Shown here: piece by piece, positions 12,407 to 46,634 of the stretch
Numbering within the stretch: position 1 is the stretch's first letter
How the letters are laid out: each line of letters opens with the position of its first letter
IMG/VR virus record: IMGVR_UViG_3300045988_144476
Direction: 5' to 3' (one strand)
DNA from: a virus
DNA: 64,000 nt
Notes under the pieces: generated by a model
The model's input: only the letters and a program-made list of their open reading frames with translations
Told to the model about the DNA's origin: nothing
Database searches by the model: none
Translations under genes and position numbers: made by a program

Positions 12407-15400
12407 TTATCTGTTACGTCCTGTCAGTTTCATCATGTCTTTTCTCATGTATTTACTATAATCATTCATAACAGTGTTACTTACCTCTTTGGCAAGTTTC
12501 TTAACATCAACATCACTGCTGATACTATCAACATTGATCGTAACATTGCTATTGAATGTATTTTCCTGATTTGAAGCAGGAATATTAGGTAATTTACCGG
12601 AAAGCATATCATTAAACTGACTCATTGTTGCCGTTGCGGGTTTTAACTGCTTTGTAAATTCCTGAGTAAGGATAGTTTCTCCAGGATTAATTGGAGCAAA
12701 TCCAGTATCGCCATTCTTAAGAATTGCGTCACCTAAGAATGAATTTGCATCTGCCGGTATAAGTTGACGAACAACTCCACCTTTAGAGAATCCATATCCT
12801 TTTAATTCTTTAAGAATTTTATCCTTCCATGATTTCTTCCAGTCTTTATATGGTTTACTTGCAATATAGTTATGACCAAGGATTTTAGCTACCTGTTCAA
12901 AATCCTTCTGACCTACTTTTTTATTTTTCTTCCAGAAATAATAATAGAAATCATGGTGTTTTTCTTTAAATTTGCTGCTTGTAACCTTTCCGGTGGGAAC
13001 ACTATTATACCATTCCTGAAGTTTAGACTTTGTATTTGCAGCTGATTCAACAGCGGCTTTAGCCTTTTGAGCAGCAGCAGCGGCAGCTTCAGCTTGTTCT
13101 CTTGCTTGTCTTTGCTCAATAGTCTCAACTGTTAGATTCGATCCAGAAGGATCCTGACTATTTAAAGCATTATTAACAGCATTATCAGATCCACTCTTGT
13201 CAGGACGCTGACTATCAATCTCGTCCGTATTTGTTTTTGGAACATTTGTAGGTATTTCACTGATAGTTTTATTTGTTAATTGTGCCTTTTTAATAAGGTC
13301 ATCAAACATATCAGAAGTCTTATATCCAGTATCTTCAATAGTTTTCTGAATATTACTATACGCATCAGAATAGGAATTCTGTACTTCTTTAAGCATGTTA
13401 TTAATAACAGACTTCTGAAGCTCTGTATTAGACTTGACAGCCTGAAGTGTTTTATCAAGTGCATCATTGGCCTGCTCAGATAAATTATCATATCCTTTAG
13501 ATTCTAAATCGATTTGGTGTTCATATTTAGTATCTGCCAGATCATCCTCTTTATCTTTAAGATCTGCTTTAAGTTGTGCAAGACGAGCTTTTGCTGATGC
13601 ATTTGTTGTACCTTCAAGAGCAGCAATTTGTGCTTTGAGTGTGTCGATATCCTTATTCTTATCTTTTAAAGTCTTATCATAGTCATAATAATCTTTTTTA
13701 GCACTAAGGGCATCTTTACGCTTATCAATATTATCCTGTAAGGACTTATTAACTTTAGTGATCTGGTCTTCATAAGCCTTAAGCATATTCTGTTGGCTGC
13801 TATAGAGACTCTTAGAAGCTTTATTGATATTAGAAACAGCATCTTTGGTAGCATCTTCATACTCATCAAGAGTTATCATATGATTGTCATACAACTCCTG
13901 AACTTCAGATAATTGTTGTCTATAATCAACGATCTGCTGTTTATAAGCGTCCATTTCTTTGCTAATTAACAAGATATTAGATAATCCCTGTTTTGTGAAT
14001 GAACCATCGTCATTCAGGAATGTATCAGAATCCATCATATCCTGAAGATCGTTTAGATTATCAATATAATCATTCAGATCATCCTGGATGTCACTAAATG
14101 CTTTAAATCTCAGGTCAACAATAGATTTCTTTAATTCCGCTGTACTATTTGCCGTATCAATAATAGAACTATTAATATCAGCTAAATCTTTGGCTAAATC
14201 CTGATACTGAGTAGAATTTTCGCTATATTGACTCATCTGATTAATAATGTCATTTCTTCTATTATTTAAAGCAATAGCGGTTTTATCATTGGTCTTTATA
14301 GCATTTAGATAATCATTTTCGGTCAGATCATTTCCAGAACCTTTATAATTATTTTTTTCTTTATAATCTCTGGAATCAGAAAGCTTATCAGAAGCTCTTT
14401 GATATTTGTCAACTTGCCACTGATCATAAGTAAGTTGGATTTCTTTTAACTTATTTTCATATTCAGCAGTTGATTGTATAATGTCATAATAAGATTTATT
14501 AAGCCCTTCAAGAGTAGCTTTTGCTTCTTTTGTGGCTGTATCATCTGGACCATATTTTTTAGCAAACTCATTATAAGCAGTCTGATACTTCTGAATTTCC
14601 TGATAAATCAAATCTGCTTGTGTCTGATTTGAAGAAATCTGATTTCTGATCGTATTTGTATAATCAGAATTAGGAGCCTGAGATGCACCTTTTTCTTCAC
14701 GAGCAGAATTTAAACTGTCTAAAGTCTCATTGTAAGATGAATAAACCCCAATTAAAGCATCATATCTCTCTGTAATATTGTTAAGTTTCTGCTGGTAGAG
14801 TTCTTTTTCTTTTTGTTTTAATTCCTCTATAGCTTTGTTACAATCATTGATTTTGTCATACCATTTCTGGTAAGCTTCAACCTTTTTCTTGTTATCATCA
14901 GAAAGTTTTGCCAGATCAATTTTACCATTCTTGACTTTATTCTTTAAATCAGCTGATAATCCAATATCTTTTGCAAACTTATCGGATTTCTTGGTGTACA
15001 TTTTAGCACCTTTAGCATAATCCTTCTGAAGTTCCTGATTATCCTTAAGCTGTTTATTGATATAAGTTTCTTTGTTTGCAAGCTTATATGTGTTTTCAGC
15101 TTTAGCAGCATTTAAATCTATACGATTCTCAAGCTTCTTAACTAATCGTTCAAACCAGTCTACAATATCATCAAGATATTTCTTGGAAGAAGATTTAGAT
15201 GAGGATTTATTTTTTTTTCCAGATCCAGATCCTGAACCAGAATTTGAACCAGAAGATTTCTTATTGGAAGAACTAGAAGAAGTAGATTTCCGAGTAGAAG
15301 TGTCTTTAAAATTAAATCCAGTAAGTGCATAAGCATTAGAACCTAATGAACCTTGAGCATAAGCACGAGCATTACTATTTGTTCGTCCATGTTCTAATAA

Positions 15401-18400: not shown

Positions 18401-20383
18401 TAAGAATTCAGATCCTTTTAAATTTGACCGAACTCGTTTGATTACATCATCCTGAACGTTGCTCATATCAAATCCCGCAGTATTAATACCATCCAAAATA
18501 CTTTGAACATATTTATCTGCAGCAGCTAATTCCTTCGGATCAGTCGTATCTTTTACAGCATCACGAATCTTTCCAATAGCAGTAGAAGCTTTATCGGTTG
18601 CAAGTTTCTGCAAGCCTGTCTGTAAATCATCTGTCTCAGTAGCAAGTTCTGGGAATTGCTGAATAAGATCTGTGATATCAGAACTCTTCATATCACCGGA
18701 TTTCAGGGAATCCATAGCAGTCTTGATATTAGACATACTTGACTGGAAATTATCTGTTACGGTATCAATGTCTGTTGCTGTGTCTTCAGCTGCATTCTTG
18801 AAGAGAGAAGAAAAAGTTTTGGATGTATCTTCGGAAGAAGCTTTAGATTCTTCCATTGCTTTATTCCAATTGGAAGTAAGTGTACCTATTCCCCAATCAT
18901 TCTCTTCAGGATCAAGACCATTATTCTGGAGATAATTCCAGAAAGTTTCTATATCTTTATCTGATTTATCCTTAAAAAATGCATCAGCGATTGAGCCGCC
19001 AGAAGTACTCGGAAGTTTTGACATAAATGCAAAAGTATCTTTAAGATTTTCTTTTACACCTTCAATATTTAATGCTTCCGGATCAGCTATAGCCATGATA
19101 TAAGATGCCAAATCATCTTGTGATACATTTTTATCTCCAAGTGCTGATTTGAGATCAGAATAATCTTTATTACTATTCAGAGCATCAAGAATTCCCTTGG
19201 AACCTTTAGACTTACCAATACTTTCAAGTTTTGTCTGTAAGTCTGCATAATCAGCGAGAGCAAAAAGATTGTTTAGTTTGTCCTCTGTGTCGGAAGATGA
19301 ACCTATGAGATTTGAGTAATTATCAATAAGAGAATTAACCTGGTCAATGGTACCCTGGTATTTCTTATCAAGAACTGTACCATCATCTTTAAGCATACTC
19401 TGTGACTGATCTGAGATATTAGAAATCATTTCAGAAAGTTCTGATTTTTGAGTATCAATACCTTCTTGCTGTCTCTCAAGAGTTTTATTTTCCTCTTCGG
19501 TAATTAGGTCCATATTATCGCTATGACCTTTTTTAATATTTTCATAGGCGGTATCATATCTATCCTGTAGATGTTGGATGTAATCCATTTTTGCCTGAGC
19601 TTCATCAAGATCATTAACATATACTTTGGCTTGTGGATTATAAATTCCACTACCGTCAGAGAAATAATCCTGCTGTAGAGATTTCTTCTTTAGATCTTTT
19701 TGTGCAGCATCTGCCTCAGCAGTTTTGGCACTGTCAGCTAATTTTTGTTTCAATGATACTTGGGCACCAAGAAGTTCATTCTGATCCTGAAGAGTATTTA
19801 ATTCTTGACTCTCTTCTAGTGATCTGTTTTCTTTTGCTCGAAGCTCTTGAATACGATCTTGATTAGTTGCGTATGCAGATTGTGCGGTTTCAAGATCAGA
19901 TTGAGCTGTTTCATTCTTCTCTTGAGCTTTTTGGTATTTCTTTGTGGTGGTTGCTTTTGTAAGATCAAATTGATTATCAAGACCTTTCCATGTAGCTGTA
20001 ACTGCTGCAATGCCTAATGAAAGAATTAATTCTGGAGCAATTGCTTTAAGCACAGATCCAATACCGGATAATACACCACTAGCTTTTCCAGTGACTCCTT
20101 TAGAACCAAATAAGAAACTTTTAATGTCTACAGTTTTGGTAGCATTGTCAAGAGCCTTTTCAACCTCTTCTTTGGTATGCTCTTCACCAAATTTATTCTT
20201 AACAGCTTCAAAAATCTGATCTGTTGATAGGAATTTTTGATTGCCTTTTCTATCGGTGTTTACACGATAAGCCCATTTCATTGCTGTCTCAAAATCTGAG
20301 AATCCACCAAATGCCGCATTTAAATCTTCTTTTGTACCTGTTTTAAATGCATTTTTTAGTTTTCCGATTTTACTTAATGACAT
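12407..20383 (-). CDS. tape measure protein, distal part (TMP-B, 2658 aa)
   Basis: Hydrophobic N-terminal segment (GVLSGIGSVLKAIAPELILSLGIAAVTATW) followed by about 2500 aa of Lys/Glu/Gln/Asn coiled coil. Two TMP-end-like motifs: GTESIVRDGVWSLLPGGPHFENLKKGDIIFNASQTKDLL (~15400-15540) and PGETILTQEFTKQL (C-terminus). Followed by Dit and Tal. ATG at 20383 has no Shine-Dalgarno. Confidence 0.75.
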   Translation of the reverse strand: MSLSKIGKLKNAFKTGTKEDLNAAFGGFSDFETAMKWAYRVNTDRKGNQKFLSTDQIFEAVKNKFGEEHTKEEVEKALDNATKTVDIKSFLFGSKGVTGKASGVLSGIGSVLKAIAPELILSLGIAAVTATWKGLDNQFDLTKATTTKKYQKAQEKNETAQSDLETAQSAYATNQDRIQELRAKENRSLEESQELNTLQDQNELLGAQVSLKQKLADSAKTAEADAAQKDLKKKSLQQDYFSDGSGIYNPQAKVYVNDLDEAQAKMDYIQHLQDRYDTAYENIKKGHSDNMDLITEEENKTLERQQEGIDTQKSELSEMISNISDQSQSMLKDDGTVLDKKYQGTIDQVNSLIDNYSNLIGSSSDTEDKLNNLFALADYADLQTKLESIGKSKGSKGILDALNSNKDYSDLKSALGDKNVSQDDLASYIMAIADPEALNIEGVKENLKDTFAFMSKLPSTSGGSIADAFFKDKSDKDIETFWNYLQNNGLDPEENDWGIGTLTSNWNKAMEESKASSEDTSKTFSSLFKNAAEDTATDIDTVTDNFQSSMSNIKTAMDSLKSGDMKSSDITDLIQQFPELATETDDLQTGLQKLATDKASTAIGKIRDAVKDTTDPKELAAADKYVQSILDGINTAGFDMSNVQDDVIKRVRSNLKGSEFLKDNAENTLTNLFDKYSGDKVAQQAIVKLSMDPSMATASLDEWIAKIDELRPQIHLDANDQDLENLSKDLTRLQTDASDMQTLMSNKSALNQKATAQDYNNLVENGNAQISNLNKQIKDYQDNIRTIRESKGISPLTDEDNEKIKGYQDQIQSAQMSIENMKASQAGWLEEIQNLPITDVTNLTSALSTAIGETNSETGLTSDSVKNLVTQFSDLTAQGTDISGLFTRSAKGLQLNTDRFQELSEAQNEMVSKDLASQIADQEKKIHDSNGNIIESEKQKLEELKNLQNEYMAQYKNMQEQTSQWQKGINAESTPNAGDHYKATKSKLESLKEMYDNGEIGTDDFKEKAAYFSPYGFTDADNFIENYNKWKPYYTDDKSGPLKFLDLLQSKGLATYKTLEDGSKQWQMTFADSDVAAKAVGMSEEQFKDYIGRYEDMGGVVTNISSIAEGEADVTKKTKDLISAQEKYSELVANGAPQYAIEQQAQVVDDLKNQVNDANTALDTYVNGATDREVQNLNTAKQTINDFAKEYQQVKDDPAQQEYAQGLYDRIQQLAKDNKIKLTPEFEVDEDAFNQMLHDKGIGTFDSPLTAEEMGISDPTAAKEYANSLEAVKQAHEANAEATEADFNALKQYTATDLEGIQLGDGAYNVEGMEQAEDALQDLANQAGLTKDQLVQALEGLGVLKPEVDSSEIEELKASADSALEDVKQLQSDGKINSKIDLDIDADSMSIDNLESKIQELSKEQTKFTIDGDVEDAEKVQALIDLLQQIHDKKVQVTAETQGAELVDQLQARISELQGKGVTIDAIVQDDKVSELVNEIAQLPPEVQISIGVEEGNVGNVDAIKSQIESNPASITVNYKKGDEPKVADDIKGQANYTMGDHPTTAPDISGTANYTLGSYPKTAPTIFGTAVYTKKVQATGTMTSIAHADGTAYNMLNLKPLSSAHAGGNVALNQNETALTNEVGTESIVRDGVWSLLPGGPHFENLKKGDIIFNASQTKDLLEHGRTNSNARAYAQGSLGSNAYALTGFNFKDTSTRKSTSSSSSNKKSSGSNSGSGSGSGKKNKSSSKSSSKKYLDDIVDWFERLVKKLENRIDLNAAKAENTYKLANKETYINKQLKDNQELQKDYAKGAKMYTKKSDKFAKDIGLSADLKNKVKNGKIDLAKLSDDNKKKVEAYQKWYDKINDCNKAIEELKQKEKELYQQKLNNITERYDALIGVYSSYNETLDSLNSAREEKGASQAPNSDYTNTIRNQISSNQTQADLIYQEIQKYQTAYNEFAKKYGPDDTATKEAKATLEGLNKSYYDIIQSTAEYENKLKEIQLTYDQWQVDKYQRASDKLSDSRDYKEKNNYKGSGNDLTENDYLNAIKTNDKTAIALNNRRNDIINQMSQYSENSTQYQDLAKDLADINSSIIDTANSTAELKKSIVDLRFKAFSDIQDDLNDYIDNLNDLQDMMDSDTFLNDDGSFTKQGLSNILLISKEMDAYKQQIVDYRQQLSEVQELYDNHMITLDEYEDATKDAVSNINKASKSLYSSQQNMLKAYEDQITKVNKSLQDNIDKRKDALSAKKDYYDYDKTLKDKNKDIDTLKAQIAALEGTTNASAKARLAQLKADLKDKEDDLADTKYEHQIDLESKGYDNLSEQANDALDKTLQAVKSNTELQKSVINNMLKEVQNSYSDAYSNIQKTIEDTGYKTSDMFDDLIKKAQLTNKTISEIPTNVPKTNTDEIDSQRPDKSGSDNAVNNALNSQDPSGSNLTVETIEQRQAREQAEAAAAAAQKAKAAVESAANTKSKLQEWYNSVPTGKVTSSKFKEKHHDFYYYFWKKNKKVGQKDFEQVAKILGHNYIASKPYKDWKKSWKDKILKELKGYGFSKGGVVRQLIPADANSFLGDAILKNGDTGFAPINPGETILTQEFTKQLKPATATMSQFNDMLSGKLPNIPASNQENTFNSNVTINVDSISSDVDVKKLAKEVSNTVMNDYSKYMRKDMMKLTGRNR

Positions 20384-20386
20384 GTA
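20350..20386 (-). repeat. left arm of the island-flanking inverted repeat (covers the TMP-B start codon and first codons)
   Basis: The minus strand reads ATACATGTCATTAAGTAAAATCGGAAAACTAAAAAATG. Its partner is at 23936-23969 on the plus strand. Confidence 0.7.
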
Positions 20387-20405
20387 TAAAATTATCAGGT
20401 ATAAT
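20377..20405 (+). promoter_or_regulatory. sigma-70-like promoter for the Zn-ribbon gene
   Basis: ATGACA-17 nt-TATAAT. The -35 element overlaps the TMP-B start codon on the other strand. RBS AAAGGAGAG and ATG 20437 lie downstream. Confidence 0.55.
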
Positions 20406-20436
20406 GATGTTATAAAGATGCAAAGGAGAGATTAAA

Positions 20437-21024
20437 ATGGCTTTAATAAAATGTCCTGAATGTGGTAAGGAAGTTTCCAATAAAGCTCCAGCGTGCATAC
20501 ATTGTGGTTTCCCATTGAGTGAACTCAAAAAAGAAGGCACTTGTAAAATAAATGATCAAGAAGTTGATCTGATAAGGATCAAAAAATTATATGATTCATT
20601 ACCAGATGAATGTAAAAAAATTATATATAAAAGTTGTCGAACAAACGCAACAAAAACAGAAAAATATATTTGTTCATGTTCTCCGGATACATATACTGTA
20701 GAAGAAAGTAATAAAATTTATGATATTTATATGGATATGATATTTCCAATCCAAAAACAATTTAATTGGTTTGGTGCTAATGAGTATTTAGTTCACAGAT
20801 TCCTTGTAGAATGCATCGATCACAACTTTGAATACTTTGAGTTCAATACCTCAGATTATCCTTCTCCCGGATCTCAAAATCAACTTCGTTGTCCAAAATG
20901 TGGTTCAACTTCAATCGTTCCAGAAAAAAGAGGATACGATATTATGTGGGGATTTTTAGGATCTGAGAGAATCGTATATAATGTATGTCAGAAGTGTGGA
21001 CATAAGTGGAAGCCTGGAAAATAA
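20437..21024 (+). CDS. double zinc-ribbon protein (195 aa)
   Basis: N-terminal CPECG..CIHCG and C-terminal CPKCG..CQKCG ribbons, with a good RBS. Confidence 0.75.
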
Positions 21025-21277: not shown

Positions 21278-21442
21278 TTATTCACTTATGTCATGTTTTT
21301 GGTCTTGACAATCTGTATCTGATGAAGTGACCGGTATAAAACATTGAGTGAATATATATTTACAAAGTTCTTCTGTGTTTGTTTCAGTTATAGGCATACT
21401 GTCTGAATAAATGGTAGACACTTGTTCTGATTGTGTATTCAA
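21278..21442 (-). CDS. possible small ORF (54 aa, TTG start)
   Basis: GAGGTGA lies 5 nt before the TTG. Found by hand because it is below the ORF-track size cut-off. An in-frame ATG is at 21397. Confidence 0.3.
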   Translation of the reverse strand: MNTQSEQVSTIYSDSMPITETNTEELCKYIFTQCFIPVTSSDTDCQDQKHDISE

Positions 21443-21504
21443 TTAAATCACCTCGATTCTAATAAAAGTGTGGTTATAAGTGGTGGCTGGGGAGATAAAT
21501 AATT

Positions 21505-22320
21505 ATGTATATTGATACCTATGATACTAATAACGAAGATGAAAGATTTAAAAAATATGTAGAAATTCTTAAATCCCATGATCAGCTAAAAAAATCATTA
21601 TGGAATAAGCTTAATACTCCAGAAGTGTTAAAATTAGAAGAAGAATCAGATACTCTTTTTAAAGAATATATGAAACTAGATAGAAAACTTCAAAGAGAGG
21701 TTGCGTTTTATAATAGTTATTTGAAATCTGATTCTGATTGTATAGATTATTGCGATGTAAAATTTCATGAAGATCTAGATTTTAATCTTCCTGAAGAAAT
21801 TCAAGAGTTGGCTAATACATTTCATAAGAAAGATAAAGAATATAGTTGTGCTTGTAATGCCCACAAAGAAGCATTATGTAAAAATTTTGTAAAGCTAATA
21901 TCAGATATTACTCCTGAAAATTGTTTTAGAGATAATTCATTTGGAAGTACTCGTGATGTCTTCTCAGATTTTTATAATTCATGCAAACCATTCATGATCC
22001 TTAACATGGGGTTATACGAGCTTATTATAGTTCAAGATATTTTTACAGATAAGTATCATCATACAAATTATTCTATTACTATGTATGAATTGAAAAACAT
22101 GTCAAACTTTGATGTAAAAGTAAGATGTGAAAAGTTCTTCGATCAATTTAATAAAGAATTAGAACCATATCGACAAAACTTACGTTCTAACTTCGAACAT
22201 AAAACTCCTGTTCTGACACCTTTTAAAGATGCATATACTCTTTTTGCTCAGACCAGATCAGAAGAATATGGCAGAACTAGACAATATCTGATTATTGGAT
22301 GTGTGGTGTATCAAAAATAG
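21505..22320 (+). CDS. hypothetical protein (271 aa)
   Basis: ATG with GGGGAGA RBS. No recognisable motif. Confidence 0.7.
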   Translation: MYIDTYDTNNEDERFKKYVEILKSHDQLKKSLWNKLNTPEVLKLEEESDTLFKEYMKLDRKLQREVAFYNSYLKSDSDCIDYCDVKFHEDLDFNLPEEIQELANTFHKKDKEYSCACNAHKEALCKNFVKLISDITPENCFRDNSFGSTRDVFSDFYNSCKPFMILNMGLYELIIVQDIFTDKYHHTNYSITMYELKNMSNFDVKVRCEKFFDQFNKELEPYRQNLRSNFEHKTPVLTPFKDAYTLFAQTRSEEYGRTRQYLIIGCVVYQK

Positions 22321-22365
22321 CAGAAAATACGTTCTGATTTACATATTATATGAAAATGGTATAAT
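22321..22365 (+). promoter_or_regulatory. conserved box plus sigma-70-like promoter (cassette 1)
   Basis: CAGAAAATACGTTCTGATTTACA contains the inverted repeat CAGAA-N6-TTCTG. Promoter is TTTACA-16 nt-TATAAT. A near-identical copy is at 23073. Confidence 0.6.
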
Positions 22366-22555
22366 TTACCATGTAGATGGTGAGTGTACGCACCGCCCAC
22401 CTGTGCGTATCTACAAGCAACCCGTTAACCTATACACCATGAGAAAGTAGAGGTGTATGCTTATTTCCAGGAGTCTACATGATTCTGGTAGTCGTATCAA
22501 GTTCATCTTAGCTTCCAAACAAATAGTGAATCCGTCACTAGATTGGAGGTGAAAG

Positions 22556-22738
22556 ATGAATAATAATGATCGACTATTTAAGCTTGCAAGTTTAACACTT
22601 TTCTTGGTAGTTATAGTAGCTATAGTTTGGATAATTCTAGACCATAATCCAATCGTTTTAAAGGCAACTATTAACATATTGAAATTTTCTGCTGAGATTA
22701 GTTGCGAGTTTGCAAGCGTTGCATCAGGCTGCAATTAA
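22556..22738 (+). CDS. small single-pass membrane protein (60 aa)
   Basis: RBS GGAGGTG. One transmembrane segment (LASLTLFLVVIVAIVWIIL). Preceded by a ~190-nt structured leader. Confidence 0.6.
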   Translation: MNNNDRLFKLASLTLFLVVIVAIVWIILDHNPIVLKATINILKFSAEISCEFASVASGCN

Positions 22739-22920
22739 GTTGACCGTGGGTCGTTTATAGCCTGAGAATCAGAGGGTAATTCCTTTGATGTAAAACGGTG
22801 CCTTTTGCTCCAACAAGAGGTACCGTTATCAATAGAAATACCATGACATTTTACAATATCAGATTTTATTATTTGAGATTTCTCTTTGCTTATAAACAGC
22901 GAATCTAATTTATTATTCAT
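22735..22920 (-). CDS. possible small ORF (61 aa) convergent with the membrane-protein gene
   Basis: AAGGAA RBS. Its 3' end overlaps the plus-strand ORF by 4 nt. It could instead mark an antisense RNA. Confidence 0.3.
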   Translation of the reverse strand: MNNKLDSLFISKEKSQIIKSDIVKCHGISIDNGTSCWSKRHRFTSKELPSDSQAINDPRST

Positions 22921-23072
22921 AATAGTTCCTTTTATCCATTTTATTATATATTTGAAAATAAAGCTCCTGGATATTCCAAGAGCTTTGTTATCGGCAATCG
23001 TTCACGATTATTTTTTAAACAGGGGAGTGCCCGGATCAGCCGATATGATTCCCTCAGCATGTGAGCCTGTTA

Positions 23073-23118
23073 CAGAAAATATGTTCTGATTTACAAAAAT
23101 ACCAAATATTGGTAATAT
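23073..23118 (+). promoter_or_regulatory. conserved box plus sigma-70-like promoter (cassette 2)
   Basis: CAGAAAATATGTTCTGATTTACA matches the 22321 box at 22 of 23 positions. Promoter is TTTACA-17 nt-TAATAT. Confidence 0.6.
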
Positions 23119-23308
23119 ACCAATAGGTATTTTGTGGTTGTAGATGATGCATTACAACACGATTGCACGGCAAATACCTGATTTATTCTTTAATAAATCA
23201 TGCATAAGCAAAGCTATACAATCTTGTATACGCAATGCGAAAAGAGAATTCTGCCCGTTCTGGGCGAAACTTCCCAAATAAGAAATTTTTATTAGGGGAG
23301 GAGGTGAA

Positions 23309-23494
23309 ATGAATATGATTGAATTGTTTAGTATTTTTGGAGGTCTTCTAGTAATTATAATCTTAGCTCATATGTATTATAGTTCAAAGAAACACACCAT
23401 TGATCAGATTTGTAATCATCCAGAATTATCTGATGAGAAAGTTGAATCGATCACTAAAATGATGAAAAGACAGTACAAAGATCGTATCAAATAA
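23309..23494 (+). CDS. small single-pass membrane protein (61 aa)
   Basis: RBS GGGGAGGAGGTG. N-terminal transmembrane segment (IELFSIFGGLLVIIILAHMYY) and a charged C-terminus. Preceded by a ~190-nt structured leader. Confidence 0.65.
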   Translation: MNMIELFSIFGGLLVIIILAHMYYSSKKHTIDQICNHPELSDEKVESITKMMKRQYKDRIK

Positions 23495-23569
23495 TTCTAA
23501 TGTCATTTCCCAATTATGAATTCTCCTTTAGATTTAAAGTTTTAATAGATTTTTAGAAATGTTTACGAA

Positions 23570-23598
23570 AGAGGCCGGGAGTATTCTCGGTCTTTTTT
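23570..23598 (+). terminator. rho-independent terminator (usable in both directions)
   Basis: AGGCCGGGAG-TATT-CTCGGTCT hairpin followed by TTTTT on the plus strand. An A-run precedes it, so a weaker minus-strand version also exists. Confidence 0.65.
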
Positions 23599-23985
23599 CT
23601 CTTCATTCACAGTAGAAGAGTAGTACTGAGTGGATTTCACCACCGTTACAGTGGTACATGCATTAAAAGCATATGTCTTTCCGAACTTAACATATACTCC
23701 GAGGAAGGGTGCACTCTCTACACTTCCTGATTATTCATATGCTTCCATCACCATAACTTTCGTTATTGCTTCTAGTGTATCACATATTACTAAACGTAAA
23801 TCAGGTTGGCACATGCGTCACTCTGCGAACTTGCGTTCACTTCACTGCATAAGCAGAATAACAGGCTTCGATGTTTTATTCCTCTATTTATTTATAGCCG
23901 CTAGTCTCCACACATTGATTATTAATCTCTATGTAGATAGGCTCATTATCAAAATCGGAAAAATAAATGTAACCCTGAGTTTGGG
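23599..23985 (-). ncRNA. candidate structured RNA / long structured 3' UTR downstream of TMP-A
   Basis: No credible ORF and visibly higher GC than the surroundings. On the minus strand it has GNRA-capped hairpins GAAC-GCAA-GTTC (23827-23838) and TAAC-GAAA-GTTA (23754-23765), plus AGGAAG/CTTCCT (23703-23728). Confidence 0.4.
23936..23969 (+). repeat. right arm of the island-flanking inverted repeat
   Basis: The plus strand reads ATAGGCTCATTATCAAAATCGGAAAAATAAATG. It shares a 12/12 core AAAATCGGAAAA plus TCATTA and TAAA..TG flanks with the minus strand at 20350-20386. Confidence 0.7.
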
Positions 23986-26900
23986 TCAACCTACGGCTGT
24001 TTTAAAACCACCACCAATTAAGAAATCTAATCCTTTTTTACCTGCATTCTTTACAGTCATTGCTGAGAAAATTGCAGTGATTAGAGCTGGTATTGGTCCT
24101 AAAGTTTTCTCTAATCCGGTAAATCCTTCTGTTAATCCATGTACAAAATCAAGTGCTCCACCTACTTGATCTGAATTATAGAAGTTTAACCAGAATTCGT
24201 CCATTTGAGTTTTAATGGCCTGGACTTTGCCATTGAAAGATTCCATGTATTTCTCTTGGTTTGCTTCAGCGTTACCTTGAGCATTTGTAGCTTCTTCAGC
24301 TAAAGACATGGAGTCTGTGAATGCGTCCAATATGTTCTTGAACTTGGATGTTTGTCTTGTCGCTGCGACATCAAATGCGATTTTTGCTTGCTGTGCATCA
24401 GTCAAATCATTCCATTTGGATTTCAGTTCGGATAATACCGTAACAATTCCACGGTCTGATCCATCTGGATTATAGACATCAACACCTATAGAATGCAGAG
24501 AAGCAGAAGCATTTGATAATGTTGCATTATCAACCTCATCTGCGTATTGTGGCATTTTACCGACTTTTGTGGTTCTGGTAATAATTGTCTTTAAAGCATT
24601 ACCAATTGAACTTCCATCTTCACGAGTTCTTTCAGCTACTTTTGCAGAAATAGCAGCTAATTGTTCATATGACATTCCGGCATCATAAGCAACCTGACCT
24701 GAAGCCTGTACAGCATCAGACATTACCTTAATACCTTTGGCATAATCCATACCCACGTTCGATGATATTTTATCCATTACATCTACTACATGCATAGAAG
24801 CATCAGCAGCAGAAGTAGATCCGTCTTCTAACATATGGAACTGCTGTAAAATACCCTGTACCTGGTCAGCAGCAGTAGAAGCATCAACACCACTTAAGTT
24901 ACTCAGAATAGCAGTCGGTTTAGCAGTTTCCTGAATTTCTTTTGAAGTAGTATTCATATTTGCATAGATCTGATAAATATCCATTGTATTATCAAGAGAC
25001 ATTGACAGATCTTTTGCCATATCAACAGCAGAAGTACCTAAATCAGATAATTGCTGTTTATTCATATCCATGGTATAACTGATAGTAGTTAAAGCCTTAT
25101 CATAATCCATGAATGTATTGAATCCTTCACGCATTTGTTGCCATGCCTGTTGCATAATTTGGATACTACCAACAGCATTTGCGACATCACCAAGAGCGGA
25201 AGTAAAGTTACCTTTTACAAGTCCTTTCAGACTATCTGAAAGAGATGTAAAACCAGATGTTCCGGATTTATTTGTATATTTCTCCATTGTACGGAGACTG
25301 TCATTTGCTTTTTCTATATTACCTGTAAGAGTAACAAGATTACCTGAAACATCTTTAAAAACTAATGATATAGAACCGGTACTTTTATTTATACTAGTTG
25401 AAACTTCATTAGTAAGACCAAGTTGAGATGCATAATTTCTTAGAGCAGAAGTAGCATCATCAATATCTTTTATGGTACCAAGAGTACCTTCTTGTAAAAT
25501 ACCTTTTCCATTTTTTCTATCATATCCAGAAGCAGTTTTTTGGAAATTTTCAATATCAGAAATGATATTATTAACAGAATCATGAAAATTATTTTCGTCA
25601 ATTTCTTTATTATTAAGTGAATCAACTAATTGATTGTATCGTGTTCTAAATTCAGTGATCTTATCTTTGTAGGCATCAATTTTATTTCCAGAATTTGCAA
25701 ATTTATTTAATTTATTTATTTGTTCTGCGAAATTAAGCTCGTCATTACCTGTCACAGTATTTTCATAATAATTCTTTAGATCTGTAAATTTTTCGGTCTG
25801 TTCTTGTATTTTATCAACATAATCTAAAATACCATTAGCATTTTTATTTTGATTAAATGCACTTTCAGCATCTTTAGTAGATGTTTTTATACTTTCTAAA
25901 TCAGCTTTTAAACGATCGGTTATACGACCTGCACTTTCAAGTTTGGTGAGATAACTATCGACTTGATTTAAGAATGACTTAGAATTATTTGAAATTAACT
26001 GATCTTGAGTAGCATTGGCTCTATTACGAATATCAAATATTGCATTTTCAGCAACTTCTTTCCCAAATATGCTATTTACTTGTGCACGAAGACTTTGATA
26101 TGCATTAGTATAATTTTCACCTAAAATCTTTCCGGCAGTAATATCGGCTCCATCTTTAGTAGCAAGACCAAGAAGTTTGTTTTCGTTATTTCTTTTGTTT
26201 GAATATGCCTTCTTCATCAATTCAATGATATTATTGTTTTTACCATCAAAATTAGAATAATCAGACATATCATCAAAAGCCTTTTGATATGAATCAAATT
26301 TCTTTTGATCTAAAATTCTGTCGGGATTTGATTTATTATTATCGTATACTGTATTATAAAAATCCCCAACTTCTTTTCGTAAAGATTTAATTTTATCTAC
26401 TTGAGCATTTACTTTTTCAATGTATTCATCTTTACCATATTTGCCAGAAGCTCCATTTGCCTGGATATTATATAAATCAACATATGCTTGTTTTAATTCT
26501 TTAACTTTAGCAATAGCAGAGTCATATGTTTGATTATAATCATCTATATTTTTCTGTGTATTTTCTTTCTGAAAAGCACTATATGCACCTTGTTCAGCTT
26601 CACCTAATTTACTTTTTTGGGTGTTATAAGCATTTACACGATCTTTTCCTAATACATCAGAATGCTGTTCAATAAATTTATCGGCATCCTCAATATTCTT
26701 TTGTTTATTATCAATTTCTTTGCGTAAATTGTTAATTAATTCATTAGAAGCACCTTTAGATTTAGCAGAAGATAATTCTTTATTTTTCTTCTCTAGTTTA
26801 GAAAGACCATTCATTAAATCGGTGTATTCAGAAATAATTTGATCTGAAATACGATTTCCCGCACGTTCGTTCATATCAATCCGATGTTGTTCAATTCCTT

Positions 26901-29775
26901 TTTGAATTGCCTCATCAAATTGTTCAGTCGTATATTCAGGATGTTCTTGAGCATAAGTCTCTGCATCTGCTCTTAAGCTCTTCATACGTCCCTTTAAATA
27001 TCCAATACGTTTTTTAGAAGCTTTAATATTAGATTGACTACTATTTTTGGCAATACCTGCCTCCATATCAGCAAGATCTTCACGTTCGGTCATTAATCTT
27101 TTTTCTATATTAATTGCTTCTGTCTCTAACGCTGCATATCCGCTTTTTATATCACCGCCAGATTGTCTCCATAAACCATCTGAATCTTTTGTGAGAGTTC
27201 TAGTGTATGATCGTCCGGTCTGATCGTCTTTGTAAACTGTAGTCTTTTTTCGACCATTAATGTCTTCCTTATTAGACACAAGTCTATAATTCTTATATGG
27301 ATTATCTTGTTCCAAAAACCCTAAAAGTTTTTCTGGAGAAAGTTTAAATCCATTATATGTACTACCTAAAAGATTTCCAGATTTATAACCAGTTAAAAAA
27401 TTCTCTTTATGAGCAATAAAACTTTGTTCGTTTTCAGCTGCTTGAGCATTTTTCTTAGCTTGTATAATACGAACTCTTTGTTCTTCTCTATCAGATTTGC
27501 TTTGAGCAGTATCTGTAGATACTTTTAATTTAGGCGCAGAAGTAACTTTATATTTTCTTTCTTCTTGTTTAACAGATTCTTCCTGCTTCTTAGCCGTATC
27601 CTCAGTAGCAACACCAAGTCTCTTAGTAGAATCAGCCATCTGATCAATATTTTCAGTGGCATTACCGGCAGCAGAAGCAACAGCATCATTGATATGATCA
27701 ACGGCAGTATCCACAGCATCTGCAGTCTTTTCTGTTTTCTTAGCTTGAGTGGTAGGAGATTTAGAAGAAGTAGATGTATCCTCTAAAGAATCACGAAGTG
27801 CATAATGAGTGTCAGAAAGAAAATATAATCCTTTAGTATCTTTACCAGATTTTTTACGAATTTTCCCTAATAATCTTTCTTCGTATCTTTCTGTTTTATC
27901 TAAATCTGCAATAGATAAATTTCCGTTATTTTTTTTGATATTTTGAGCAAACATCTGATTGACAAGTTTATCAGCTGCATTTCTAATACTATCATGTGAT
28001 AATAATGTACCATCAAAATTATTTATCTGATCATAAATTTGAGAAAAAATAGATAATCTTTGTTCTAACCCTTTTAATTCTGATTCGGCATCTTTCAAAT
28101 TAGTATTTTGATTTACATAAGGAGAATGTAAATTTAAAGCTTCTGCAGGTATACCATTTTTTAAAGCAGTTATATAATATTTTCTTGTTTTATATAAAGC
28201 TGCAGTTTCTGAAAAACTACCTTGTGGTATATCTGGATTTTCTCGAATTTGATCTAAATCTCTTGAAGCTGCCATAAATTTTGTGGCGGCATTTTTTTTA
28301 CCAGTAGCAGAATAATCAGCGTTTACAATTGAATCATATACAGAACCTTTCGAAGTAATATTCTGTGTAGGAGTAGTAGATTGAGTGGATTTCTTCTGGG
28401 TAGTTTTAGGTTTAGAAGAAGTAGATTTGGAAGTAGATTTCTTTTTAGGAGTGGTTGTTTTTGGAGCGAAACTAGAAACAGCTTTCTTTTCCGCATCTTG
28501 TTGCTCTAAGAATAGTTTGGCAGATTGTTCTTCATATATTTTTTTGAAAAATCCTGTAGTATCTTGTTCGAATATAAGGTTTTTTACGTCATCAAAATCT
28601 TGAAGATCTTTAAGACCTGTTCCACCCTTATATTTATACACTAGGAGATTTCCAAGAATACCAGCCTGAACAGTTGGGCTTAAGTCTTCATTTTGAAAAT
28701 CATGTTCCCGTCTGTATCTATTTAATGTTGCTCTTGACGTTTTAGCGTCATTTTTTTCAATAGCTTCTAGTATTTTATCTTTAGCATTAGATAATTCTCT
28801 ATTTTTAGTATCTAAAATATCACGTTTTCCTGCATCTTTAGCTTGGGCTGTCAGTCCAGTTTGCACTGACTTTAAAGCATCTATAACTTCTTTAGATCCA
28901 GCACCAATGGATTTTGCTGCTGTAATAAATACTGTAGCGATTCCTTCACCACCAGCTTCTAACGAAGTCTTTATATCGCCAATTAATGCTTTTTGAGATA
29001 CTTCTTCAGTAACAGATGTATTAAAACCGGGAATAAGTTCAGAATTTTTTTTGGTAAAATAATTTCTTGTGGCTACTTGATGACCACCTAAATTATCTGG
29101 AGTATTATTTTTATTAAATTGTTCAACAAGTCTGTCATGATAAGCAAGAACGTCCGCTTGTCTTTGTCGTGCAGCTAACATTTCATCTAAAGTTTCATAT
29201 TCTTCAGCTTTAAAAAGTCCAGACTTACTGCTATAAGATTCATTAATTTTTTTTATAATATTACCAATACGAAACAATTCTGCAATTTGTTCTTGATATT
29301 CACTAGAAATTTTATTCTTATTTATAAAAGAAGTAATTCCACCACGAACTCTTGAATCTAATTCAGAAGTAGACGCTAATTCTGGATATTGAGACATAAA
29401 ATCTTTTACATTAGCATTTTTACCTAATTGTGTTAAATTTTTTTTTGTAACGTTGGTAGTTGCATTTGAAATAGCACTTTCTAATGCCTTTGCATATGCT
29501 TTAGCGTCACTTAAAGTTTTCTTATCAAGATTTGATGGAAGTTTTACTTCTCCCATTAATGGAATTTTAGTTTCTTTATATTTAATCTCAGCTTCTGTTT
29601 TAATTGGCTTTTCAGCCTCTCTACGAGCTTTATCTATTTTTGATGTATCTGGGATAATAGTATCTTTTGTTTCATAATCTTTACTTGCTTCTTTTTTCCA
29701 TTCATCCCATAATTTTTTATCAACATTAATCGGAACATTTATTTCATGTTCGCCACTTGGTCCTTGATAACTCAT
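23986..29775 (-). CDS. tape measure protein, proximal part (TMP-A, 1929 aa)
   Basis: TP901-type TMP core-like stretch (AKDLSMSLDNTMDIYQ...SSIGNALKTIITRTTKVG), long coiled coils, a Ser/Thr/Lys linker and a hydrophobic Gly-rich C-terminus (PALITAIFSAMTV..FLIGGGF). RBS AGGTGAT. Confidence 0.85.
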   Translation of the reverse strand: MSYQGPSGEHEINVPINVDKKLWDEWKKEASKDYETKDTIIPDTSKIDKARREAEKPIKTEAEIKYKETKIPLMGEVKLPSNLDKKTLSDAKAYAKALESAISNATTNVTKKNLTQLGKNANVKDFMSQYPELASTSELDSRVRGGITSFINKNKISSEYQEQIAELFRIGNIIKKINESYSSKSGLFKAEEYETLDEMLAARQRQADVLAYHDRLVEQFNKNNTPDNLGGHQVATRNYFTKKNSELIPGFNTSVTEEVSQKALIGDIKTSLEAGGEGIATVFITAAKSIGAGSKEVIDALKSVQTGLTAQAKDAGKRDILDTKNRELSNAKDKILEAIEKNDAKTSRATLNRYRREHDFQNEDLSPTVQAGILGNLLVYKYKGGTGLKDLQDFDDVKNLIFEQDTTGFFKKIYEEQSAKLFLEQQDAEKKAVSSFAPKTTTPKKKSTSKSTSSKPKTTQKKSTQSTTPTQNITSKGSVYDSIVNADYSATGKKNAATKFMAASRDLDQIRENPDIPQGSFSETAALYKTRKYYITALKNGIPAEALNLHSPYVNQNTNLKDAESELKGLEQRLSIFSQIYDQINNFDGTLLSHDSIRNAADKLVNQMFAQNIKKNNGNLSIADLDKTERYEERLLGKIRKKSGKDTKGLYFLSDTHYALRDSLEDTSTSSKSPTTQAKKTEKTADAVDTAVDHINDAVASAAGNATENIDQMADSTKRLGVATEDTAKKQEESVKQEERKYKVTSAPKLKVSTDTAQSKSDREEQRVRIIQAKKNAQAAENEQSFIAHKENFLTGYKSGNLLGSTYNGFKLSPEKLLGFLEQDNPYKNYRLVSNKEDINGRKKTTVYKDDQTGRSYTRTLTKDSDGLWRQSGGDIKSGYAALETEAINIEKRLMTEREDLADMEAGIAKNSSQSNIKASKKRIGYLKGRMKSLRADAETYAQEHPEYTTEQFDEAIQKGIEQHRIDMNERAGNRISDQIISEYTDLMNGLSKLEKKNKELSSAKSKGASNELINNLRKEIDNKQKNIEDADKFIEQHSDVLGKDRVNAYNTQKSKLGEAEQGAYSAFQKENTQKNIDDYNQTYDSAIAKVKELKQAYVDLYNIQANGASGKYGKDEYIEKVNAQVDKIKSLRKEVGDFYNTVYDNNKSNPDRILDQKKFDSYQKAFDDMSDYSNFDGKNNNIIELMKKAYSNKRNNENKLLGLATKDGADITAGKILGENYTNAYQSLRAQVNSIFGKEVAENAIFDIRNRANATQDQLISNNSKSFLNQVDSYLTKLESAGRITDRLKADLESIKTSTKDAESAFNQNKNANGILDYVDKIQEQTEKFTDLKNYYENTVTGNDELNFAEQINKLNKFANSGNKIDAYKDKITEFRTRYNQLVDSLNNKEIDENNFHDSVNNIISDIENFQKTASGYDRKNGKGILQEGTLGTIKDIDDATSALRNYASQLGLTNEVSTSINKSTGSISLVFKDVSGNLVTLTGNIEKANDSLRTMEKYTNKSGTSGFTSLSDSLKGLVKGNFTSALGDVANAVGSIQIMQQAWQQMREGFNTFMDYDKALTTISYTMDMNKQQLSDLGTSAVDMAKDLSMSLDNTMDIYQIYANMNTTSKEIQETAKPTAILSNLSGVDASTAADQVQGILQQFHMLEDGSTSAADASMHVVDVMDKISSNVGMDYAKGIKVMSDAVQASGQVAYDAGMSYEQLAAISAKVAERTREDGSSIGNALKTIITRTTKVGKMPQYADEVDNATLSNASASLHSIGVDVYNPDGSDRGIVTVLSELKSKWNDLTDAQQAKIAFDVAATRQTSKFKNILDAFTDSMSLAEEATNAQGNAEANQEKYMESFNGKVQAIKTQMDEFWLNFYNSDQVGGALDFVHGLTEGFTGLEKTLGPIPALITAIFSAMTVKNAGKKGLDFLIGGGFKTAVG

Positions 29776-46608: not shown

Positions 46609-46634
46609 AACAACTCCTCCTTGTGTTCGTTAAA

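Follow-up and report, generated by a model that had tools for sequence, protein, structure and literature searches.

A giant phage tape-measure gene very probably split by a long group I intron that carries antisense genes

Two giant open reading frames (ORFs) on the minus strand of a viral DNA stretch of 64,000 nucleotides (IMG/VR record IMGVR_UViG_3300045988_144476, hereafter the window) are very probably the two exons of a single tape-measure gene, split by a 3,608-nt group I intron whose splicing we infer from the sequence. The evidence for this reading is computational: the intron boundaries and the frame they leave, conservation and covariation in the RNA, and the colinearity of the joined product with uninterrupted tape measures. 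An earlier note on this DNA had taken the two ORFs, TMP-A and TMP-B, for the halves of one tape measure of about 4,600 aa, and the analysis supports that view, as removal of the intron fuses both ORFs in frame. The predicted join GGT|TCA would give 1929 + 2657 = 4,586 aa (...TAVG-SLSKIG...), and the spliced RNA would read ...GCCGUAGGU|UCAUUAAGU... at the junction, the form predicted for the family being ...GCCGTrGGT|TCATTAAGT.... Group I introns in tape-measure genes are already known, and the present case would be an unusual version of them; a tape measure of 5,002 aa is known as well.

An ORF check found TMP-A (23986-29775 including its stop, 1929 aa) and TMP-B (12407-20383 as called, 2658 aa) where they had been placed, on the minus strand and 3.6 kb apart. 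In the spliced gene, exon 1 would comprise 23989-29775 (1929 codons) and exon 2 would comprise 12407-20380 (TMP-B without its apparent Met, 2657 codons and a stop). The same layout recurs in more than 15 independent contigs and one isolate genome, which rules out an assembly artefact or an isolated case.

TMP-A carries the TP901-type tape-measure core that the earlier note had recognized: Pfam PhageMin_Tail (PF10145) matches residues 1583-1801 (24373-25029, minus strand) with 71.7 bits and E = 9.7e-20, the cut-off being 33.2 bits, and five PHROG tape-measure families match residues ~1280-1910 (best E = 3e-42). No additional domain was found in the N-terminal ~1,280 residues of TMP-A, PDB sequence searches with TMP-A and TMP-B returned nothing useful, and megablast of the locus against GenBank phages gave no match. 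The ribosome-binding site AGGTGAT is present in front of the TMP-A start. TMP-B has no Shine-Dalgarno sequence, as had been noticed: its start region reads ...CCTGATAATTTTATAC|ATG and a TAA closes the frame 16 codons upstream, whereas the genes neighbouring it have GGAG/AGGTG-type sites. Hydrophobic segments had been described at the facing ends of both ORFs. A strong one does lie near the start of TMP-B (residues 103-132, i.e. residues 2031-2060 of the joined protein; 19988-20077, minus strand; Kyte-Doolittle scan) and is the sole strong one in the joined protein; hydrophobicity at the TMP-A C-terminus is mild.

The gene order, with terminase, portal, further genes, two ~190-aa ORFs, the tape measure, a 333-aa ORF and a 1074-aa ORF, would fit a tape measure set between the tail-assembly chaperones and Dit/Tal. 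Dit and Tal behind TMP-B are putative assignments by position. Both tail-tip genes (together 8119-12341, minus strand) are syntenic in relatives, and the Dit-like product (333 aa, 11340-12341, minus strand) weakly matches DUF6558 ("phage tail protein N-terminal"). Neither the Tal-like 1074-aa ORF (8119-11343, minus strand) nor the two ~190-aa ORFs in the putative chaperone position before the tape measure match any family.

The predicted intron occupies 20381-23988 on the minus strand, starting with the TGA "stop" of TMP-A and ending with the "ATG" of TMP-B, the terminal G of which would be the omega-G. These boundaries are kept in 11 distinct introns of 1,587-3,608 nt. Exon 1 ends in ...GCCGTrGGT in all relatives, with its final U before the 5' splice site, and the intron opens with a stop codon (5' end UGACC or UAACC). 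At every locus the last intron base is G, and the two bases before it vary (AT, GT, TT, TA). On the other side, the N-terminus SL(S/K/G)KIG is conserved from the first base past the intron. The first 26 nt of exon 2 (UCAUUAAGUAAAAUCGGAAAACUAAA; 20355-20380, minus strand) would form the P10 helix and its extension, and in the exon-2 start no relative deviates by a nucleotide from TCATTA and AAAATCGGA. The string GTCATT is found once in the entire intron, at the 3' splice site.

These boundaries bear directly on whether TMP-A is a real tape measure by itself and TMP-B a separate virion or tail protein with a Shine-Dalgarno-independent or leaderless start, the conserved RNA element described below then being some other RNA, for instance a dead ribozyme or a stabiliser in the 3' UTR. 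We consider this very unlikely. The terminal G closes a codon that reads ATG, GTG, TTG or TAG and is start-like in four of the five lineages, as an independent gene would have it; a GATAAT lies 7 nt upstream of the TMP-B ATG in the window, and small elements bear the first ~630 aa of TMP-B without TMP-A. In the fifth lineage (L003-L006, L118, L123, L126, L127, L131 and L133), which includes a prophage of the cultured Ruminococcus isolate AM36-2AA (locus L118, scaffold QTYB01000001.1 around 414-436 kb), the TMP-B "start" is nonetheless TAG; the ORFs there remain intact at ~3,000 aa and are conserved from right after the stop, and the next possible starts (codon 13, 21 or 28) are not conserved. 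Leaderless initiation at the GATAAT was accordingly rejected as the main route to TMP-B, neither the start codon nor the sequence upstream of it being conserved. The lack of a Shine-Dalgarno sequence is explained if the intron itself ends with the apparent ATG, in place of which one lineage has TAG. Relatives that always encode two independent genes, each with its own ribosome-binding site, had been named as evidence against a single tape measure. Every relative found is indeed split, but none has a conserved independent start or ribosome-binding site and all of them retain the ribozyme, so the sequences indicate that the split is an old fixed intron and not two independent genes.

At the 5' end of the intron lies a non-coding core of ~398 nt (23591-23988, minus strand; helices P1-P9.1), which is conserved in all relatives, has a sole copy in the window by nhmmer and, wherever a locus contains the end of TMP-A, starts at the very next base. 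DNA identity to relatives is 73-89% in the core vs 55-58% in exon 2. When a P1-P9 helix model was fitted to the core, 95.5% of cells were paired, compared with 28-44% when the model was slid along the alignment, and 17 compensatory pairs were counted vs 1-4 in the slid controls, a result reached by none of 500 shuffles. The helices follow the canonical order P3-P4-P5-P6-P7-P3'-P8-P7'-P9 with the P3/P7 pseudoknot, supported by covariation. Compensatory changes occur in P2, P4, P5 (4 of 4 pairs), P5a, P5b, P6a, P6b, P7, P8, P9a and P9.1; P3 (23880-23884 with 23701-23705) is invariant, and P3 and P6 are consistent, without two-sided changes. P7 (23710-23714 with 23654-23658; 23654-23714, minus strand) encloses P3' (23701-23705) and P8 and is itself supported by covariation, one of its pairs (columns 297/359) being C-G in 6, A-U in 3 and U-A in 2 sequences; in the model this region would form the pseudoknotted catalytic centre expected for a group I intron. 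RNAalifold independently finds most helices, agreeing on the non-pseudoknotted ones, and adds a helix between exon 1 and the intron with two compensatory pairs. Purifying selection on a full group I fold is hard to square with a dead ribozyme, and the pairing of the element with both exon ends described below, with covariation, likewise argues against an unrelated RNA beside two separate genes.

An internal guide sequence, 5'-UAAUGA|GCCUAU-3', was identified at intron nt 41-52 (23937-23948, minus strand). Its GCCUAU pairs with the exon-1 end GUrGGU to form P1, with U.G at the splice site and five further pairs in 11 of 11 introns, a one-sided A/G change at position -4 preserving the pairing. 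Its UAAUGA pairs with UCAUUA at the start of exon 2 to form a 6-bp P10 in every locus. All 12 guide pairs are thus present at each locus, and a comparable guide arose in 631 of 200,000 shuffles (0.3%). P10 is continued by a second arm at intron nt 22-38 (23951-23967, minus strand), which pairs with exon-2 positions +10 to +26 (inverted repeat I4, 16 of 17 complementary). This extension is conserved in all lineages as a helix of 10-17 bp with dG of -13 to -21 kcal/mol and z of -2.8 to -6.0, shuffles being as good in 0-6 of 300 cases. The conserved extended P10 of ~23 bp may help the ribozyme to locate its remote 3' splice site. A search for a helix that would close the intron by pairing the end of the core with the intron's 3' end found none (z about 0).

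Some features of the intron depart from familiar group I introns. J6/7 and J8/7 are 11 and 10 nt in the helix model, longer than in typical group I introns; the model has no P7.1/P7.2, and the probable group I assignment extends to no subgroup. The 1.2-3.2 kb with antisense genes between the core and the 3' splice site are likewise atypical. Rfam searches of the window, the island between the two ORFs, the core alone, a relative and locus L142, at gathering and permissive thresholds, found no intron family, and RF00028 gave no match even at E <= 10. This negative carries little weight since it comes from a low-power test: in the control, the same tool scored the T4 nrdB intron at 35.7 bits, below the gathering score of 50, and missed T4 td. 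The large size of the intron and the Rfam result might also suit a group II intron or some other kind of intervening sequence, a reading to which we give next to no credence. The 5' end reads UGACC/UAACC where a group II intron would have GUGYG, and the 3' end does not conform to AY. The intron holds neither a reverse-transcriptase ORF nor hairpins resembling domains V/VI close to its 3' end, Rfam gave no group II match, and the helix order with its P3/P7 pseudoknot suits group I. A search for a homing endonuclease (GIY-YIG, HNH, LAGLIDADG, PD-(D/E)XK and others) in the intron found no same-strand ORF, and the antisense ORFs match zinc-ribbon models only. Split inteins, for their part, were rejected by eye, no intein motifs being seen at the TMP-A C-terminus or the TMP-B N-terminus.

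A DNA-level insertion, i.e. a transposon, an integrative island or a recombinase-excised element removed before late expression, would fit the opposite-strand genes of mobile-element type that the island bears. Yet the island contains no recombinase or transposase and its boundaries no terminal direct or inverted repeats; they match instead the group I splice-site rules and the guide pairings, and the same position and core recur in all relatives though the cargo varies. Such an insertion is extremely improbable.

If the intron is spliced as predicted, the joined product should read as one continuous polypeptide, with the core, the hydrophobic segments and a long C-terminal extension in succession, and this holds for the spliced sequence only. 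TMP-B searched alone against Pfam and PHROG matched no family, as might be expected of a separate protein, but tape-measure profiles and uninterrupted tape measures run across the junction. PHROG profiles cross it (at position 424) as single stretches in the spliced sequence only, phrog_4211 covering 19-1300 and phrog_1533 covering 48-1420, and phrog_10871 matches solely the joined sequence. Single tblastn HSPs cross the junction in the uninterrupted tape measures of phiL47, P1048, PMBT69, phi36 and Thrax3, similarity being low exactly at the junction, and the alignment with phiL47 places TMP-B residues 103-132 opposite the second hydrophobic segment of its tape measure. As to the comparison with related phages that the earlier note had proposed, continuous tape measures of cultured phages align over the junction, and all relatives found are split.

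No intron-less allele was found among IMG/VR sequences (an exact scan for spliced junction DNA gave 100 matches, all by chance) or among proteins, and none of 5.8 billion called proteins spans the junction, which would also be expected of two separate genes. The exon junction is for this reason predicted rather than observed. One protein, P0023, was considered as a junction-spanning candidate and rejected, its tail being read-through into a homologous intron. P0023 also shows an apparent compensatory P1 (AUAGCU with GGCUAU), which is weak evidence, since a 6-nt match in ~60 nt is not rare. In three relatives the summed spliced lengths are 4,586, 4,626 and ~4,532 aa and the halves differ by 14-21%; this near-constant sum speaks for a single gene and is no more than suggestive as to protein length setting tail length.

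The whole non-core part of the intron (3.2 kb) is filled by a cassette on the opposite strand (20377-23598, plus strand), recognized from its ORFs and signals. It opens with a promoter-like site, ATGACA-17-TATAAT (11 of 12 positions; 20377-20405, plus strand), and closes with the only strong terminator in the region (23567-23598, plus strand). Its first gene, isl195 (20437-21024, plus strand), encodes a 195-aa double zinc-ribbon protein (Pfam Zn_Ribbon_1, PHROG 2546) and has its own Shine-Dalgarno sequence, AAAGGAGAG. A homologue lies antisense to the intron at every locus, 42-53 nt from the 3' splice site, and the family, with more than 1,200 clusters, also occurs at the edges of integrated elements beside toxin-antitoxin and resolvase genes. 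A PADLOC search of isl195 and isl271 gave no match. Isl195 was examined as a homing endonuclease and rejected, as it has zinc-ribbon matches only, relatives outside introns and no PDB or PADLOC support. The second gene, isl271 (271 aa; 21505-22320, plus strand), is variable cargo with homologues in L115, L120, L121 and L132, and matched nothing in Pfam or PHROG either; a 61-aa membrane-like ORF follows at 23309-23494 (plus strand). The cargo is probably expressed independently of the late operon and would encode accessory ("moron"-like) proteins.

These signals also bear on a dual use of the locus, in which partial splicing, possibly antisense-regulated, would yield the fused 4,586-aa protein, free TMP-A and, where the codon is NTG, free TMP-B, each with its own role. 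The immediate stop at the intron start, the start-like codon at its end in most lineages and the convergent promoter-like and terminator signals within it are what such a design would have, and splicing across 3.6 kb may be slow. Free full-length TMP-B is nevertheless impossible in the TAG lineage, and a tape measure without its C-terminal part would normally be non-functional or harmful; we regard dual use as very unlikely.

On the preferred reading of one gene with a removable intron, the following course is proposed. The late transcript would pass through the whole locus, and the first ~398 intron nt would fold into the ribozyme. The guide would hold the end of exon 1 through P1 with its U.G wobble and through a further 6-bp exon-intron helix, and the guide region would hold the first ~26 nt of exon 2 through the unusually long P10. 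A guanosine cofactor would then attack after the exon-1 U, and the freed exon 1 would attack after the terminal G, 3.6 kb downstream. Ligation would give ...GCC GUA GGU|UCA UUA AGU..., from which translation starting at the TMP-A start would yield 4,586 aa, and on unspliced RNA the TGA at intron bases 1-3 would halt translation. The cassette of 3.2 kb that separates the core from the 3' splice site would be tolerated cargo on the opposite strand, with its own promoter, Shine-Dalgarno sequence and terminator. A more far-reaching and rather doubtful proposal is that, in large Ruminococcus-type gut prophages, the intron is more than a tolerated parasite and serves as a fixed, endonuclease-less "safe harbour" for an antisense cassette expressed in lysogeny within an essential tail gene of 4.6 kaa, that exceptionally long helices between guide and exons (covering 10 nt in exon 1 and ~23 nt in exon 2) evolved to splice over kilobases, and that antisense transcription could gate splicing and tail production. 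If true, lysogeny would be coupled to late-gene silencing at the RNA level.

The closest parallel is the group I introns TMP-IVS1, IVS2 and IVS3, described at three sites in the tape-measure genes of Bacillus cereus-group prophages (Tourasse & Kolsto 2008, PMC2504315). Their subclasses are IA1/IA2, and some of them no longer have a complete endonuclease gene (PMC2504315). Like them, the present element would be a group I intron in a tape-measure gene of a Firmicutes (pro)phage with P1/P10 guide pairing; several insertion sites per gene are found among the relatives here too, and some Bacillus copies are likewise without a working homing endonuclease and passively inherited. Unlike them, the introns here span 1.6-3.6 kb, contain no recognisable endonuclease and carry a conserved opposite-strand cassette, with a ~23-bp P10, a model without P7.1/P7.2 and no detectable similarity to the Rfam model.

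The core of the T4 nrdD (sunY) intron lies wholly upstream of a long insertion near its 3' end, and its 3' splice site, far from the core, depends on P9.0/P10-type pairings. The core here is also upstream of a long 3' insertion, but that of T4 is a same-strand homing-endonuclease ORF of <1 kb, and the one here comprises up to 3.2 kb of opposite-strand genes with promoter and terminator. In engineered trans-splicing group I ribozymes, a long antisense extension beside the guide improves the capture of the substrate or 3' exon. The P10 of 6 + 17 bp seen here looks like the same solution, though those ribozymes are artificial and act in trans, and the predicted one is natural, in cis and conserved across a phage family. 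Prophage "morons" are independently transcribed accessory genes in late operons and normally stand between genes. The cassette resembles them in being an opposite-strand unit with its own promoter-like site, Shine-Dalgarno sequence and terminator within a late structural operon, but it lies within an essential gene, where it would be tolerated only because it is in an intron. The locus would represent a natural group I intron presumably acting over 1.6-3.6 kb that hold opposite-strand, independently signalled genes, and having an unusually long P10. It offers a testable model of splice-site recognition by ribozymes over long distances and of the sheltering of accessory genes by introns in essential genes.

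If all 4,586 aa measure the tail, at 0.15 nm per residue, its length would be ~0.69 µm. The earlier note had called a tail of ~0.65-0.7 µm extraordinary; it would be very long and, if real, among the longest known, but not unprecedented. Lactococcus phage phiL47 (NC_023574) has an uninterrupted tape measure of 3,275 aa, and in the Thermus phages P23-45/P74-26 a tape measure of 5,002 aa goes with tails of 0.8-1 µm (10.1101/2022.12.01.518664, PMC10034513). The N-terminal part of the P23-45 protein is an RNA polymerase. All of these are siphovirus-type tape measures of several thousand residues; theirs are continuous ORFs, and the one here is predicted to require RNA splicing. Gene callers working on this phage family, and probably on others, would give at least two "giant hypothetical proteins" where there is one tape measure, and Rfam-based screens miss the intron, so that tail-length predictions from called ORFs and protein-family statistics would be wrong. 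The family is common in human-gut metagenomes, and its presence in the Ruminococcus isolate AM36-2AA makes work on splicing, virion proteomics and tail length feasible.

Two giant ORFs, TMP-A (23986-29775, 1929 aa) and TMP-B (12407-20383, 2658 aa), lie 3.6 kb apart on the minus strand of the window. The coordinates in the earlier note were exact, and its observations that TMP-A follows an AGGTGAT ribosome-binding site, while TMP-B has no Shine-Dalgarno sequence and an in-frame TAA 16 codons upstream, were borne out; the adjacent genes have normal ribosome-binding sites. A Pfam PhageMin_Tail domain was found at TMP-A residues 1583-1801 (E = 1e-19), and five PHROG tape-measure families matched the last ~650 residues of TMP-A only. 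The best of these profiles, phrog_4211 (2,625 positions), was covered from position 470 to 947, where TMP-A stops. TMP-B alone gave no Pfam or PHROG match. The surrounding module is siphovirus-like, comprising genes for the large terminase (43293-45350) and the portal (41689-43272), an ORF of capsid size, small tail ORFs, the tape measure, an ORF with a weak DUF6558 ("Dit-like") match and a 1074-aa ORF, with no sheath protein recognised. A RusA-like Holliday-junction resolvase gene (30937-31503, minus strand) also sits within the tail module, directly upstream of two ~190-aa ORFs preceding the tape measure; it is conserved in relatives (75-89% identity), and a recombinase-like gene occupies the corresponding position in Lactococcus phage phiL47.

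The spliced sequence was scanned with PHROG tape-measure profiles, which matched it in single stretches over the junction. With the junction at 424 of the scanned sequence, phrog_4211 spanned 19-1300, phrog_1533 spanned 48-1420, and phrog_10871, which matched neither half alone, spanned 263-622. A tblastn search of all GenBank phages with a 617-aa junction peptide also gave single HSPs over the junction in uninterrupted, annotated tape measures, for example those of Lactococcus phiL47, P1048 and PMBT69 (query 5-386), Mammaliicoccus phi36 (2-396) and Bacillus Thrax3 (5-319). The phiL47 tape measure (3,275 aa, uninterrupted) aligned in the order of the spliced product, in which the core domain is followed by a mild hydrophobic patch, a further ~100 residues and then the main hydrophobic segment, with low identity at the junction itself. 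The proposal of a single tape measure divided into two parts is supported. Data were complete for three relatives, in which the summed exon lengths were 4,586, 4,626 and ~4,532 aa, against 1,593-1,929 aa for exon 1 and 2,657-3,033 aa for exon 2; with n = 3, this steady sum of variable halves is no more than suggestive of one protein. Giant tape measures are also known elsewhere: phages P23-45 and P74-26 have a 5,002-aa tape measure and a 0.8-1-um tail (10.1101/2022.12.01.518664, PMC10034513). Visual inspection of TMP-B showed two non-coiled motifs that resemble each other, at residues ~1620-1690 and ~2555-2605 (…NEVGTESIVRDG…GGPHFENLKKGDIIFNASQTKDLL… and …NGDTGFAPINPGETILTQEFTKQL…), the first followed by a Ser/Gly/Lys-rich linker (~1700-1745). 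Both look like C-terminal motifs of ordinary tape measures, a hint that exon 2 itself may derive from duplication or fusion.

No close relative was found among GenBank phages, and more than 20 related loci were collected from IMG/VR, metagenomes and GTDB genomes (source contigs ~130-200 kb), nearly all of human gut origin. A scaffold from a cultured isolate, Ruminococcus sp. AM36-2AA, supplied one of them (L118), which is identical to the IMG/VR locus L003. Every locus covering the region has the order TMP-A, an insert of 1.6-3.6 kb, a homologue of the 195-aa zinc-ribbon ORF isl195 (opposite strand, at a distance of 42-53 nt from TMP-B) and finally TMP-B itself. Because this layout is identical throughout, the split is old and fixed, rather than a recent insertion or an artefact. 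An intron-less allele was not found in searches of DNA and protein.

The TMP-B "start" codon varies among the aligned loci, its sole constant base being the final G: ATG stands in the window, L117, L120, L121 and L132, GTG in L007, L114-L116 and L136, TTG in L124, L125, L130 and L134, and the stop TAG in L003-L006, L118, L123, L126, L127, L131 and L133. Phages of the TAG lineage differ in where their next in-frame start falls, which is codon 13, 21 or 28. The window has 11 tRNA genes (Leu x2, Tyr, Trp, His, Ser, Gly, Glu, Met, Pro and Asn) at 46634-46710 and 50749-53294 on the minus strand, ten of them in a 2.5-kb array, a set that fits a phage with a large genome (~170-200 kb). As none is a suppressor, recoding there does not explain the relatives' TAG. 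Conservation of TMP-B, SL[S/K/G]KIG..., begins at the codon directly after the variable "start". At the other side, TMP-A ends in all loci with GCC/GTC GTr GGT, followed at once by TGA or TAA, and the DNA downstream of this stop is strikingly conserved. Group I splice sites require an exon ending in U and an insert ending in G, and the insert here (20381-23988, minus strand) obeys both rules. Joining GGT to TCA keeps the frame (...TAVG/SLSKIG..., 1929 + 2657 = 4,586 aa), and we infer that TMP-A is spliced to TMP-B. In four of the five lineages, the triplet that contributes the terminal G could serve as a start codon, so that back-up initiation of TMP-B could conceivably occur there.

The first ~398 nt of the insert (23988-23591, minus strand) form a conserved core, present once in the window, whose first base is the base after TMP-A in every locus. 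Between lineages, its DNA identity is 73-89%, compared with 55-58% for exon 2 and 71-80% for the well-conserved end of exon 1. Intron nt 41-52 constitute a guide, 5'-UAAUGA-GCCUAU-3', in which GCCUAU forms P1 with the final six bases of exon 1, GUrGGU (U.G wobble at the splice site), and UAAUGA forms P10 with the opening six of exon 2, UCAUUA. All 12 pairs are formed in every locus; when the first 400 nt were shuffled 200,000 times, a comparable guide arose in 631 cases. Based on an 11-sequence alignment, we modelled P1, P1x, P2, P3, P4, P5/5a/5b, P6/6a/6b, P7, P8 and P9/9a/9.1 in canonical order, with P3 crossing P7 and GNRA tetraloops capping two hairpins. Paired cells amounted to 95.5% versus 28-44% with partners slid by 1-3 columns, and compensatory pairs to 17 versus 1-4; none of 500 column shuffles reached the observed values. 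The P7 pair varies among C-G, A-U and U-A, each of the four pairs of P5 covaries, and compensatory pairs occur in each of P4, P5a, P5b, P6a, P6b, P8, P9a and P9.1. RNAalifold, which cannot draw pseudoknots, independently found P1, P1x, P2, P4, P5, P5b, P6, P6b, P7, P8 and P9a. It also found an extra exon-intron helix between exon-1 positions -10 to -5 (AGCCGU) and intron GCGGCU (alignment columns 103-108; 23989-23998 and 23891-23896, minus strand), with two compensatory changes across lineages; this helix is additional to a standard P1, and it competes with the two outermost P1 pairs of the model. The single-sequence MFE was modestly better than that of shuffles (z = -2.2). In the model J6/7 and J8/7 are long and P3 is invariant, and the assignment stops short of a subgroup. 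Rfam recognised no group I or group II family at any threshold, a negative of little weight because, in a control on phage T4, the nrdB intron scored 35.7 bits (gathering score 50) and the td intron was missed.

A plus-strand cassette takes up the 3.2 kb from the core to the 3' splice site, and a helix closing around this cargo was looked for but not found. A repeat scan showed that intron nt 22-38, directly 5' of the guide, are complementary at 16 of 17 positions to exon-2 +10 to +26, extending P10 to a 6 + 17-bp helix with a 2x3 loop between. Every lineage keeps this extended P10 (dG -13 to -21 kcal/mol, z -2.8 to -6.0, with 0-6 of 300 shuffles equally good), which may be how the remote 3' splice site is located. 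Exon-2 TCATTA and AAAATCGGA never vary in relatives, synonymous positions included, because they are paired in it. GTCATT has no further occurrence within the 3,608-nt intron.

The cassette has the region's best promoter-like site (20377-20405, plus strand; ATGACA-17-TATAAT), which overlaps the splice site, and its sole strong terminator (23567-23598, plus strand), which abuts the core end. Between them lie isl195 (195 aa, with its own Shine-Dalgarno AAAGGAGAG), isl271 (271 aa) and a 61-aa membrane-like ORF, and no ORF on the tape-measure strand, recombinase or terminal repeat was found in the island. Cargo content and length (1,587-3,608 nt) differ among relatives, with isl195 constant. Its family comprises more than 1,200 clusters of double zinc-ribbon proteins of ~180-200 aa, which are also found bordering integrated elements, next to genes for toxin-antitoxin systems and resolvases and frequently in tandem as paralogues. 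Searches with isl195 matched no nuclease, no defence system and no PDB entry; our reading is a moron-like cargo gene rather than a homing endonuclease. About 1 kb of cargo (22320-23300) has no ORF of at least 62 aa, and within this ORF-poor part intron nt ~1059-1291 and 1615-1678 are 70-78% identical to relatives and may represent decayed genes or small RNAs.

The cut in the tape measure is thus very probably a group I intron with antisense cargo. Group I introns of subclasses IA1/IA2 occur at three sites in tape-measure genes of Bacillus cereus-group prophages, some without a complete endonuclease gene (PMC2504315), and other phage structural genes are also well known to harbour introns (PMC3706429). 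Three features appear unusual here: the size of the intron with an opposite-strand, independently signalled cassette in its 3' part, of which full-text literature searches found no description; the very long P10; and an intron that lacks an endonuclease yet is fixed throughout a family of large gut prophages. The locus bears on the annotation of giant phage proteins, and provides a natural and tractable example both of splice-site capture over a long range and of an essential gene that shelters accessory genes.

Several relatives carry a second insertion of 1.6-1.7 kb at TMP-A residues 1805-1808, within or beside the PhageMin_Tail domain (L004:7670-9356, the same in L005; L007:14291-15875; L119:1102-2686; L121 before 1226), with same-strand ORFs of 304-382 aa lacking a Pfam match; the window, L003 and L006 are without it. 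Protein matches also break off abruptly at junction-query positions 58, 98, 135 and 153, which suggests more insertion sites in other relatives. These candidates are probably further introns, and Rfam did not recognise the second insertions. In a degraded prophage (L116:942-2530), the TMP-B homologue ends at residue ~349, fused to fragments of the 1074-aa tail protein, and is followed by endolysin (GH25 + CHAP), holin and integrase genes, which show the phage family to be temperate. Small integrative-looking elements (L131:1433-8838, also L123, L124, L126, L127, L114 and L115) encode a tyrosine integrase, a DEAD-box helicase and an isl195 homologue, together with no more of TMP-B than its first 620-660 residues, frequently with a TAG "start"; neither TMP-A nor the intron core was found within 6 kb. 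The element in L114 lies between bacterial-type genes, and the group could be satellites or prophage remnants. Finally, a distant element with an SNF2-like helicase and a large serine recombinase (L142:9001-18632, and L143) has a 1012-aa PhageMin_Tail protein, a ~800-nt gap without an Rfam match (L142) and a 1929-aa protein. The gap holds group-I-like R/S motifs (AGAGACTGTAAGG / ATATGGTAGTCTATG) and an antisense 107-aa ORF; it may be an independent candidate intron with antisense cargo in a tape-measure-like gene, a hint that the arrangement recurs.
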